From: Octopus sinensis
Taxonomy: Eukaryota
Assembly: GCF_006345805.1 (NCBI RefSeq)
Contig: NW_021826832.1
Coordinates: forward strand, 1 to 11,964
Reading direction: 5' to 3'
Length of the DNA: 11,964 nt
The notes beneath the pieces are model-generated. The model did not search any database, was not told the origin of the DNA, and saw nothing but the letters and a program-made list of their open reading frames with translations. Shown here in pieces: positions 4,503 through 11,964 of this stretch. The position numbers and the translations under genes are program-made. Within the stretch, counting starts at the first letter, position 1, and each line of letters opens with the position of its first letter.

Positions 4503-4530
4503 TATATATACATATATATATATATATATA
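4503..4530. repeat. (TA)n left flank of the hammerhead array
   Basis: Seen directly; abuts the array. Confidence 0.9.
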
Positions 4531-4649
4531 TTAACAATTAAGGAACGGCCATAATAGGCCATTCACCCACTAGAAATAACAGCCCAAGCTTCTACCGCAA
4601 ATAAAGATTAATTCCGTAAACAGGAGAAATTAAAAAACATTTACCCTGT

Positions 4650-4754
4650 ATTTCTTGTACGGTAACCGTTTCATCCGCTGTTTAATGTAAAACTAACCTG
4701 ATTAAATTAAATCAAGCCAATCTTCCATAAGCCCTCGGATTCTTCAGCAGAAAT
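4650..4754 (-). ncRNA. Type I hammerhead ribozyme, copy 1 (core intact; 1-nt deletions in stems I and III)
   Basis: Reverse complement has CTGAAGA (4741-4747), stem II ATCCG/CGGAT, and GAAACGGTTACCGTA followed by CAAGAAAT. Confidence 0.7.
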
Positions 4755-5132
4755 AGCTAAGTCGGAACAGATATTTACACGAGGCATACACAATCTTGCC
4801 AAGTCATATCTGACCTAAAATTTTCAAATCGTCGCACTCGCGCCAAATTTATCGGCAGCAAATAAATATCAGCCGTCGATTCCATTACGAATTAACCAAA
4901 AAATTCATAATTAATCAATATAGGGTGGCAAGGAAAATTTTGTAGAATTTTATTGCACCAGCGGCCCAGTGGGAAAAAATTAAATAGTCATAGACCATTT
5001 TTAAGTTCAACATTAACATTAAGGAACGGCCATAATAGGCCATTCACCCACTAGAAATAACAGCCAAAGCTTCTACCGCAAATAAAGATTAATTCCGTAA
5101 ACATGAGAAAATTAAAAAACATTTACCCTGTA

Positions 5133-5239
5133 ATTTCTTGTACGGTATACCGTTTCATCCGCTGTTTAATGGTAAACTAACCTGATTAAATTAAATCAAG
5201 CCAATCTTCCATAAGCCCTCGGATTCTTCAGCAAGAAAT
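5133..5239 (-). ncRNA. Type I hammerhead ribozyme, copy 2 (intact)
   Basis: Reverse complement of 6073-6179. Predicted cleavage between 5141 and 5140. Confidence 0.85.
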
Positions 5240-5621
5240 AGCTCAAGTCGGAACAGATATTTACACGAGGCATACCCAATCTTGCCAAGTCAATATCTGA
5301 CCTAAAATTTTCAAATCGTCGCACTCGCGCCAAATTTATCGGCAGCAAATAATATCAGCCGTCGATTCCATACGGAATTAACCAAAAAATTCATAATTAA
5401 TCAATATAGGGTGGCAAGGAAAATTTTGTAGAATTTTATTGCCACCAGCGGCCCAGTGGGAAAAAATTAAATAGTCATAGACCATTTTTAAGTTCAACAT
5501 TAACAATTAAGGAACGGCCATAATAGGCCATTCACCCACTAGAAAACATAACAGCCAACTTCTACCGCAAATAAAGATTAATTCCGTAAACAGAGAAAAT
5601 TAAAAAAACATTTACCCTGTA

Positions 5622-5726
5622 ATTTCTTGTACGGTATACCGTTTCATCCGCTGTTTAATGGTAAACTAACCTGATTAATTAAATCAAGCCATCTTCCATA
5701 AGCCCTCGGATTCTTCAGCAAGAAAT
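5622..5726 (-). ncRNA. Type I hammerhead ribozyme, copy 3 (core intact)
   Basis: Same motif with two 1-nt deletions in the stem II extension. Predicted cleavage between 5630 and 5629. Confidence 0.8.
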
Positions 5727-6072
5727 AGCTCAAGTCGGAACAGATATTTACACGAGGCATACCCAATCTTGCCAAGTCAATATCTGACCTAAAATTTTCA
5801 AATCGTCGCACTCGCGCCAATTTATCGGCAGCAAATAAATATCAGCCGTCGATTCCATTACGGAATTAACCAAAAAATTCATAATTAATCAATATAGGGT
5901 GGCAAGGAAAATTTTGTAGAATTTTATTGCCACCAGCGGCCCAGTGGGAAAAAATTAAATAGTCATAGACCGATAAATTTGGCGCGAGTGCGACGATTTG
6001 AAAATTTTAGGTCAGATATTGACTTGGCAAGATTGGGTATGCCTCGTGTAAATATCTGTTCCGACTTGAGCT

Positions 6073-6179
6073 ATTTCTTGCTGAAGAATCCGAGGGCTTA
6101 TGGAAGATTGGCTTGATTTAATTTAATCAGGTTAGTTTACCATTAAACAGCGGATGAAACGGTATACCGTACAAGAAAT
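6073..6179 (+). ncRNA. Type I hammerhead ribozyme, copy 4 (intact)
   Basis: Stem I ATTTCTTG (6073-6080) pairs with CAAGAAAT (6172-6179). Core CTGAAGA at 6081-6087. Stem II ATCCG (6088-6092) pairs with CGGAT (6151-6155). GAAA at 6156-6159. Stem III ACGG-TATA-CCGT. GUA cleavage triplet at 6169-6171. Confidence 0.88.
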
Positions 6180-6559
6180 TACAGGTAAATGTTTTTTAAT
6201 TTTCTCCTGTTTACGGAATTATCTTTATTTGCGGTAGAAGCTTTGGCTGTTATTTCTAGTGGGTGAATGGCCTATTATGGCCGTTCCTTAATTGTTAATG
6301 TTGAACTTAAAAATGGCTATGACTATTTAATTTTTTCCCACTGGGCCGCTGGTGGCAATAAAATTCTACAAAATTTTCCTTGCCACCCTATATTGATTAA
6401 TTATGAATTTTTTGGTTAATTCCGTAATGGAATCGACGGCTGATATTTATTTGCTGCCGATAAATTTTGCGCGAGTGCGACGATTTGAAAATTTTAGGTC
6501 AGATATTGACTTGGCAAGATTGGGTATGCCTCGTGTAAATATCTGTTCCGACTTGAGCT

Positions 6560-6663
6560 ATTTCTTGCGGAATCCGAGGGCTTATGGAAGATTGGCTTGA
6601 TTTAATTTAATCAGGTTAGTTTACCATTAAACAGCGGATGAAACGGTATACCGTACAAGAAAT
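6560..6663 (+). ncRNA. Hammerhead copy 5 with damaged core (CGGA in place of CTGAAGA)
   Basis: All stems are present but the catalytic core is 3 nt shorter at 6568-6571. This is either a mutation or a sequencing error. Confidence 0.6.
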
Positions 6664-6888
6664 TACAGGGTAAATGTTTTTTAATTTTCTCCTGTTTACG
6701 GAATTAATCTTTATTTGCGGTAGAAGCTTTGGCTGTTATTTCTAGTGGGTGAATGGCCTATTATGGCCGTTCCTTAATTGTTAATGTTGAACTTAAAAAT
6801 GGTCTATGACTATTTAATTTTTTCCCACTGGGCCGCTGGTGGCATAAAATTCTACAAAATTTTCCTTGCCACCCTATATTGATTAATT

Positions 6889-6898
6889 ATATATATAT

Positions 6899-6944
<46 letters not shown>

Positions 6945-6955
6945 TACCTATATAT
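6889..6955. repeat. (TA)n right flank of the hammerhead array
   Basis: Seen directly. Confidence 0.9.
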
Positions 6956-7475
6956 AGTGTATATGTTTTTACTGTGGTAGCTTAACTTCAATTTAATTAA
7001 CTCTAAAACTGATAGGCGTCGAAAACGCAACGAATCAATCCTACTTTCCGGTATCATCTATGTGTACCTATCTTCATTTATCACCGTCGTAGCTGCCCTC
7101 CTAGATATTTGGCTGCAATTTGCGGGATGCTAACCAGACGTATAGAACAGCATTTCCCATACTTTTGTTTGTTCATCAATTCTTTGATCAGAGGACAAAT
7201 CTTGCAAAACATCTGACTGAGTCTCCCACGGTGCTATTCAATTGCTTCATCATGAATTAAATACATCTGTAATTTCCATTAACCCAAGAGCCCCATCATT
7301 TGATTGGACAATTAATATATTAGACTAGGTCGTACAGTGGTTGCTCGGTTGTTATTTAAGCATTCTTTATTTTTTATCTGCCATTGTTTATTTGAAATAG
7401 CTACCTTATGCACATATAGGTTGAACTCGTTTCCAACCCAGTTGTGTATTGTATGAGCGTGAAGGTCACGCAACA

Positions 7476-10261: not shown

Positions 10262-11964
10262 TTCCCTAATGAACAGAAAGGATGTAAACGTGGATCCTAC
10301 GGCTGTAAAGACCACTACTCATCAATAAGATGATCTTAGAAGATTGTCACAAACGACACAAAAACTTATCAATAGCCTGGATAGACTATAAAAAAGGCTT
10401 TGATAGCCTACCACATAGCTGATTAGGAAATGCCTTGAAATGTATAAGATAGCACCAACTCTGCGAAACTTCTTGACTGTAAGTATGAGATCATGGAGAA
10501 CCACACTAACTCTGAACAGTGACAGTGAATCCCTAAATGCTGGTGATGTAAAATTTCGTGTGGCATTTTCCAGGGTGACTCACTGTCACCACTCCTCTTT
10601 TTTTTATCCTTAATACCTCTCTCAAAGCTGCTCCAATGACGCGCAGTACGGGTATAAAATGTTTGAAATAAAAATTAATCATCTCTTTTACATGGAATGA
10701 TTTAAAGCTTTTTGCAAAAAATGATCAACAACTCAAGGGCGTTACTAGCGATAGTCAAAAACATTCAGTGACGACATCAGAATGCAATCGGCCCTCGATA
10801 AATGTGCCAAAGGCTACCTTTATCAAGGAAAAATGACAGAAACATCTAACGTTAACCTTGACCAACAGAATGTCATAAAAGAACTAGACCCAGCGGAGAG
10901 CTACAAGTACCTAGGGGTAATGTGAGGGAACGGAATAGGCATTCAGAGATGAAGGAAAGGATCAGGAGAGAATGCTATCGACGAGTGAGAGCAATACTCA
11001 AGACAGAGCTGAATGCAAGAAACAGGATCGAAGCAATCGATGCATTAGCTATACCAGTCGTGACTTACAGTTTCAATATTGTTAACTGGTCAATTACTGA
11101 AATATGTCAGCTCGACAGAAATATAAGGAAACTGTTGACAATGCATAGAATGCACCACCCTAAGGCAGATACAGAACGACTCTATCTGCCAAGAAAAGAG
11201 GGAGGCCGTGGTCTTTTGCAACTGGCAATAACAATGAGATTGCTACAATTGGCCTAGACACCTACCTAAAAACTCTGAGGACTGGATGTTAAAACTTGTC
11301 TCAAAACATGAAAACAAGAAGCATCATACTCAGTCACAAAAACAGGCAAAGGAATATCTAAGTGAATTCCGAATACAACCAATTTCGGAATTAGAGATAG
11401 ACATACAAGAACAAGCACAGAAAAAGCTAGGCGCATGAAAACCCGTGCCAAAACTGCGGCCTTAGATATTCTGAATAATAAATGGCAAGAAAAACCTCTC
11501 TATGGCAAATACCCAAAGAGAGCGAATAATGCGATATCGACAAAGCCCTGACCCTCAATGGCTAATGGCCTCTGGCTTAAATCTGAAACAGAGGGGTTTA
11601 TCATAGCAGCTTAAGATCAATGCCCTACCACAAGAAACTACCAGGCCAACATATTAAAGATCAGAAGCAGTCCAACGTGTCGTGTATGCAAGTAACAAAA
11701 TGAAACCAAGTGCAGTCTTCTAGCGCCTACAGAGTATCTCACAGGCCGATAGAGCTGCACAATATATTCACTGGGTAATCTGTAAAAACCTGGATTTGCC
11801 CCATGAAAAACTGGTGGGAACACAAACCACCCCCAGTGCTTGAAAATGACCACATCTCTCACTCCTCTGGAACTTCACCATTCAAACTGACAGGAAGATA
11901 GATGCAAATAGGCAGACATCATATTGAAAGACTTCAACAAAAGAACATGCCTCCTCATTGATAT
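10262..11964 (+). mobile_element. Dong/R4-clade non-LTR retrotransposon (RT + zinc knuckle + restriction-like endonuclease); 5'-truncated, frameshifted, continues past the window
   Basis: Manual translation across frameshifts gives EQKGCKRGSYGCKD, AWIDYKKGFDSLPH, GIFQGDSLSPLLF (10562), HLFYM(D)DLKLFA (about 10680), LDKCAK, YKYLGV (10902), HPKADTERLYLPRKEGGRGL (in ORF 10922-11257), YGKYP, SETEGFIIAA*DQCLPTRNY, CRVC (11678), and LWNFTIQTDRKIDANR(P)DII..LID. This motif order is characteristic of R4/Dong elements. Confidence 0.92.

Follow-up and report, generated by a model that had tools for sequence, protein, structure and literature searches.

Layout and family of the hammerhead array

The window, the whole stretch of 11,964 nucleotides of Octopus sinensis DNA analyzed here, carries one insertion at 4530-6890 that is composed of a hammerhead unit of ~491 nt; the minus strand holds about three units and the plus strand 1.9. 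From a junction at 5970 the two arms point away from each other, back to back, with (TA)n on either side. The features are as follows:

4503..4531, no strand: left (TA)n target tract
4530..5971, minus strand: left arm, two full and two partial units, with monomer 131 (site A) as its outer 3' end
5133..5239, minus strand: hammerhead with intact core, left arm
5622..5726, minus strand: hammerhead with intact core, left arm
5970..5971, no strand: inversion junction; the arms, truncated at their 5' ends at monomer 147 and 290, meet here with a 2-nt overlap
5970..6890, plus strand: right arm, one full and two partial units, with monomer 237 (site B) as its outer 3' end
6073..6179, plus strand: intact type I hammerhead, core 6081-6087, predicted cut after 6171
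6560..6663, plus strand: hammerhead copy with damaged core, inside the long helix described in the earlier note
6888..6956, no strand: right (TA)n target tract

The earlier note had assumed a monomer of 532 nt. The actual period is 484-491 nt, and the helices listed there were therefore taken from two adjacent units. Differences between units are mostly single-base indels and look like read errors. The unit has a GC content of 0.36, and the sole frame of at least 70 aa from stop to stop over the array is one of 72 aa spanning the junction; the element is protein-free and lacks an LTR. Since (TA)n is present on both sides, any target-site duplication would be masked. Two other repeats lie in the same window: a tandem 184-bp unit at 18-364 (1.9 copies, 84% matches) and, at 10262-11964 beside a (TAA)n tract, a degenerate non-LTR retrotransposon. 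Judged by eye its motifs resemble R4/Dong elements; a 131-aa piece of it had no Pfam match above the cut-off.

The predicted ribozyme shows the core CUGANGA, GAAA and NUH in type I order together with three stems, the arrangement of a type I hammerhead. The copy at 6073..6179 has a stem I of 8 bp, a ~60-nt hairpin that extends stem II, and a 4-bp stem III with a palindromic loop. Its core is intact in 156 of the 165 monomers of the window's subfamily. Across subfamilies the stems carry two-sided, compensatory changes at 8 of 17 pairs, and stem III is palindromic throughout subfamilies 1-4. The base of stem II is A-U rather than the usual G-C, which counts against the explanation favored below. 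Rfam models gave no hit to the unit at gathering score, probably owing to the long stem II. In the consensus fold the ribozyme is not blocked by a complementary strand, and 5' ends of insertions are enriched just after the predicted cut site (27 of 192 within positions 1-30), at most an indirect sign of self-cleavage. A palindromic helix III and dimeric hammerhead action are described in PMC4209133; in Xenopus, only one of nine predicted dimers cleaved (bioRxiv 10.64898/2026.07.22.740005). We also observed two ribozyme-flanking motifs, monomer 13-17 and 360-364 (window ~6184-6188 and ~6527-6531), which are near-invariant in five subfamilies and able to pair, possibly as a tertiary or extended stem I contact.

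Exact matches to the ribozyme motifs of three subfamilies numbered 609, 3120 and 271 in the 2.7-Gb assembly, and two further, more distant subfamilies were found beside a remnant of a Penelope-like element (PLE). Mean identity of the other four subfamilies to that of the window is 0.90, 0.75, 0.63 and 0.56. Copies number in the thousands; the repeat is young, its arrays in (TA)n are nearly identical to one another, and they are chromosomal and dispersed. Unlike viroids, the family is genome-encoded. For the analyses below we dropped L062 (a duplicate of L063), overlapping loci, L094, L095, L146 and L175; from alignment A3, 11 of 20 subfamily-4 loci and 7 of 20 subfamily-5 loci were excluded, most for partial match. 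L062 and L063 are near-identical insertions with identical flanks ~42 kb apart; either the locus was duplicated nearby or one of the two is an assembly haplotype. Type I hammerheads that likewise have a long stem II and a palindromic stem III were noticed at L243:2074, L244:6267, L246:3575, L250:8012 and L256:2713. A (TA)n tract lies ~130-250 nt beyond each, and clear homology to the window family was absent from them.

Predicted fold and insertion ends

All five helices proposed in the earlier note lie at their coordinates and are fully paired:

6414-6427 with 6696-6709, plus strand: helix 1, 14 bp; compensatory between subfamily majorities at 6 of 14 pairs
6351-6358 with 6380-6387, plus strand: helix 2, hairpin; compensatory at 3 of 8 pairs; ends 17 nt before site B
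6500-6507 with 6538-6545, plus strand: helix 3 (CAGATATT helix), weak; 18 of 24 pair states kept
6751-6758 with 6765-6772, plus strand: helix 4, hairpin; compensatory at 5 of 8 pairs; ends 13 nt before site A
6742-6749 with 6824-6831, plus strand: helix 5; compensatory at 2 of 8 pairs; encloses site A

A helix of at least 14 bp was present in 3 of 200 dinucleotide shuffles, and the number of helices of at least 8 bp (20 observed, 12.0±3.3 shuffled) was reached by 2 of 200. The comparison of circular folding energy with shuffles proposed earlier yielded z between -5.2 and -5.7 for three window monomers, with none of 60 shuffles as low in each case; the monomer portion without the ribozyme still gave z = -4.7. 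The five helices coexist in a single circular fold of 6345-6831. The whole monomer had been called self-complementary: the fold is indeed branched with 10-11 hairpins, but only 59-62% of bases are paired and an AU stretch of 26 nt is open. Likewise, the long helix does enclose a hammerhead at 6560-6663, but its core is damaged there, and in the cut monomer helix 1 closes the domain of the insertion ends instead. A circle does not follow from the fold as had been suggested, as a linear monomer cut at the ribozyme site forms all five helices as well.

The earlier note also expected the ribozyme strand to stand out by its G-U pairs and its folding energy. Three of the five helices contain one G-U pair each, but folding energy fails to single out the strand. 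The strands of the window monomers differ by ~35-45 kcal/mol, but shuffles show most of this gap too (~30), and the opposite strand beats its own shuffles too (z -3.3 to -6.7). In three subfamily copies, z for ribozyme and opposite strand was -5.3 and -4.1, -5.6 and -6.7, and -4.2 and -3.8. Most of the gap thus comes from composition, and we dropped this asymmetry as evidence.

We examined 161 insertions, three of which are cut by the locus edge, and found their outer ends at two fixed positions. Among the 106 two-armed insertions 94 pair an end at A with one at B, one has A on both sides, none has B on both sides, and in 11 one end stayed unclassified; all 52 one-armed insertions end at A or B. 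The arms thereby differ by a 106-nt 'tail' between the two sites. Outer ends abut TA in 240 of 264 cases. By eye, a similar pair of ends can be seen in subfamilies 4 and 5, which are not included in these counts. Site A keeps its position even where its letters change. Variants within an array are mostly shared: 351 of 374 are common to at least 80% of its units and 166 of 172 occur on both arms, and 9 of 31 long arrays have a private variant that is fixed.

Both insertion-end sites fall into one stretch of the unit:

6211..6427, plus strand: one unit's conserved domain (monomer 42-260), which helix 1 closes and which contains helices 2, 4 and 5

In the cut monomer helix 1 is formed by 42-55 with 247-260, leaving a domain of ~220 nt with site A at window position 6299 and site B at 6404. 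Helix 4 is followed after 13 nt by site A (~131) and helix 2 after 17 nt by site B (~237), and both sites are open or weakly paired AU. A Penelope-type copying enzyme probably takes hold of the RNA at this domain in order to copy it.

Two further pairings were seen. Site B offers an alternative partner to the 3' strand of helix 1 (window 6396-6421, monomer ~228-254); the consensus fold of three subfamilies chooses this alternative hairpin over site B in place of helix 1, a possible switch that would hide the start site. An unlisted hairpin at monomer 265-272 with 287-294 has one A-C mismatch in the window's subfamily and is fully paired in subfamilies 2 and 3.

Covariation of the helices

In an alignment of three subfamilies the 46 pairs of the earlier note were paired in 95.3% of cases, with two-sided changes at only 6 pairs. 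With five subfamilies (36 copies, identity down to 56%) they were paired in 87.2%, and 24 of the 46 change on both sides. Covariation across family members, proposed in the earlier note as a check, was borne out: the score was 0.363 as compared to 0.191 in shuffled alignments, where none of 500 reached it, and to at most 0.128 in slid ones. Since the shuffle control ignores relatedness, we added a comparison with other possible helices, using the 77 of at least 7 bp in the reference copy, five of them being those of the earlier note. In subfamilies 3-5 the five helices kept 124 of 141 pair states and the 72 others 888 of 1593; compensatory pairs amounted to 16 of 47 and 48 of 531, respectively. 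Because the subfamilies share ancestry, the pair counts do not represent independent events; the five helices had been named before the distant relatives came into view. RNAalifold, given the alignment of five subfamilies alone, returned the cores of helices 1, 2, 4 and 5.

The helices differ in their conservation. Helix 3 is absent from the consensus folds of both three and five subfamilies and has compensatory changes at 2 of 8 pairs and several breaks; some of its two-sided changes adjoin alignment gaps and are not trusted. Subfamily 3 has lost two of the last three pairs of helix 1, and subfamily 4 all of them. By the alignments, helices 1, 2, 4 and 5 are solid and helix 3 is weak.

Several compensatory pairs follow the path G-C to G-U to A-U, and new G-U states were found at 9 pairs as compared to A-C at one (p=0.011). 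This excess points to the ribozyme strand as the one whose pairing is selected, with the U/G-rich make-up contributing. Within subfamilies the signal is weak and mixed. Inherited changes kept pairing in 32 of 67 cases and private changes in 26 of 99 (p=0.005); restricted to transitions there was no difference (27:16 inherited, 24:14 private). Inherited changes were not significantly depleted at helix sites relative to open sites (p=0.45).

We also considered neutral satellite DNA with chance inverted repeats, as the units are tandem and a U/G-rich strand pairs readily. Covariation measured against three controls, together with the pairing of insertion ends, refutes it and leaves it a negligible probability. 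The claim that the unit is selected as a structured RNA and is not a plain satellite is thus supported, with 24 of 46 pairs changing on both sides, recovery by RNAalifold and G-U outnumbering A-C nine to one. A selected fold had been expected to mean a compact RNA; its purpose looks like retrotransposition, with two insertion ends carried, and not like viroid-style compactness.

Selection might also act on hairpins in single-stranded DNA, either in a Helitron-like rolling circle or at cDNA ends: a hairpin lies 13-17 nt inside each end, and both strands beat shuffles in folding. The hammerhead covaries, however, and the G-U intermediates belong to the RNA-sense strand and would be A-C in cDNA, a polarity that largely refutes the proposal; the variable truncation at the 5' side and the inversion of the arms are consistent with retrotransposition. 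We therefore regard hairpin selection in DNA as extremely improbable.

Proposed copying of the unit and possible partner enzyme

The family resembles the metazoan non-LTR retrozymes (PMC7229834; bioRxiv 10.64898/2026.07.22.740005) in its short tandem units with one type I hammerhead each, dispersed occurrence, GC below 50%, absence of an ORF and self-paired predicted fold; these retrozymes include molluscan examples, and mobilization by PLEs has been proposed for them. For such elements predicted self-paired folds were described and circles shown in coral, mussel and axolotl (PMC7229834), and frog retrozymes were linked to PLE terminal repeats (bioRxiv 10.64898/2026.07.22.740005). The unit is longer, with 491 nt in comparison to ~170-400 in PMC7229834, the preprint giving 51-972. 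Expression and circles were demonstrated for those elements, whereas the window family is known from genomic sequence and contigs. In their available text, the retrozyme papers give fold predictions for single sequences, and covariation outside the ribozyme, fixed double ends and back-to-back arms are undescribed there.

Hallmarks of PLEs are a one-ended tail, an inverted truncated copy and a bias for (TA)n (PMC8557442). In the system of PMC11167929 two internal start sites bound the tail, both DNA strands are cut and extended, and a dimer is predicted. GIY-YIG Penelope-like elements (PMC8557442; PMC11167929; PMC4209133) share with the window family the inverted 5'-truncated arm, the one-ended tail, two internal start sites, (TA)n targets and a hammerhead with long helix II and palindromic helix III. 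Unlike them, the window unit is devoid of an ORF and its tail measures 106 nt and not 30-40 nt. Short TA homology accompanies its ends, which lie in open AU; in PAc, by contrast, copying begins in an AC-rich stem-loop and involves no homology.

We consider it probable that the element is a protein-free non-LTR retrozyme whose folded domain with two fixed ends serves as a platform for a borrowed Penelope-like RT, acting on a probably circular monomer. The array would be transcribed, the hammerheads would cut the transcript into monomers, and a host ligase would close these. A PLE protein, likely a dimer, would bind the conserved domain and cut (TA)n, and both DNA ends would be primed on a single RNA, with site A serving one end and site B the other; each site lies in an open AU stretch a short way 3' of a conserved hairpin. 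Both strands would then roll round the template, and the two cDNAs would join at their 5' ends to give back-to-back arms.

The same element with the same selected fold might do without a circle, if a PLE enzyme worked on uncleaved linear multimers or jumped between linear monomers, or if arrays grew by unequal crossover. The linear cut monomer forms all five helices, and the enrichment of 5' ends near the cut site agrees with a linear template. In vitro, PAc works from unprocessed RNA, and in the lizard PLE assay insertion did not need hammerhead cleavage (PMC11167929); local amplification is favored in bioRxiv 10.64898/2026.07.22.740005. However, in all seven two-armed cases private variants are fixed in every unit of both arms, which implies a bottleneck of one monomer followed by re-expansion in both orientations, and although a multimer would contain numerous A and B sites, insertions with A+A or B+B hardly occur (1 of 106). 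We hold copying without a circle to be unlikely. As far as sequence can tell, a monomer circle best explains arms of many units with shared private variants and no reuse of sites. Contigs from eight sequencing runs whose RNA status was guessed contained the unit in all eight, and a 230-nt flank was without cover; an end-to-start contig was found in two (X2, X20; also X17), as tandem DNA also gives, and these contigs therefore do not bear on expression or circularity. Over the whole set, 15 of 20 sequencing rows were guessed to be RNA, all of them contigs.

Among variants fixed in arrays of subfamily 1, read on the ribozyme strand, A>G exceeds T>C (16 and 6, p=0.003), and 10 of the 16 follow U; the arrays of this subfamily include L031, L049, L064, L080 and L085. 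The skew is absent from subfamily 2 (14 and 17). It may reflect ADAR A-to-I editing, but selection for G-U gives an identical skew. The excess on the RNA strand of the youngest subfamily would also suit a viroid-like RNA that replicates from RNA to RNA and leaves genomic arrays as by-products, as would the branched fold, the hammerhead, the size and the presence of several lineages. Hammerhead viroids and plant LTR retrozymes, discussed in part in PMC7229834, share the branched fold and a hammerhead; theirs is of type III and not of type I, and the window family differs by its unblocked ribozyme, its lack of an LTR, its genomic encoding and in showing no sign of RNA-RNA replication. A non-exhaustive look noticed no hammerhead on the opposite strand, Rfam hits are absent, the conserved domain coincides with the ends of DNA insertions, and copies are chromosomal and dispersed. 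Replication of this kind appears very improbable to us.

The retrozyme reading can be carried further, and here we are tentative, the extension being on balance somewhat doubtful: the ~220-nt domain would be a conserved RNA 'origin' for a Penelope-type RT, the circular RNA would carry two hairpin-plus-AU modules each priming one end of the cut DNA, and A-to-I edits introduced in the folded RNA would be written back into the genome. If true, such an origin would explain the PLE tail and the inverted arms. The mobilization of retrozymes and the choice of internal start sites by PLEs are open questions in the literature cited here. The structure backed by covariation can be linked to two precisely placed start sites, documented by over 100 natural insertions. 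The helices to mutate and rescue in an existing in vitro assay are thereby named, and searches for such elements and for their partner enzymes gain a structural profile. Within a known class of retrozymes, the addition is the deep covariation of the fold and its link to the two start sites. A retrozyme of a cephalopod, or covariation outside the ribozyme of a metazoan retrozyme, was absent from the literature listings searched, although supplements of PMC7229834 or the preprint could list one; in the available text of an octopus repeat annotation the words ribozyme and retrozyme occur zero times (PMC13282606).

Terminal repeats of 20 PLE loci, a small sample of old copies out of 851 candidates, contained no clear homolog of the family profile. 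Two candidate associations were rejected. At L171:885-1228 an old PLE RT fragment abuts the 5' end of a subfamily-3 copy; a template switch was considered, but the fragment has no relative above 81% and an old neighbor is equally likely. The PLE beside a relative at L241 is a separate insertion beyond a TA tract, with unrelated terminal repeats. At L241:245-6687 three independent TA-targeted insertions are adjacent, namely two distant relatives of the family and a broken RT/GIY-YIG element with inverted ends of ~270 nt. The relatives L242 and L248 match RVT_1 and GIY-YIG.
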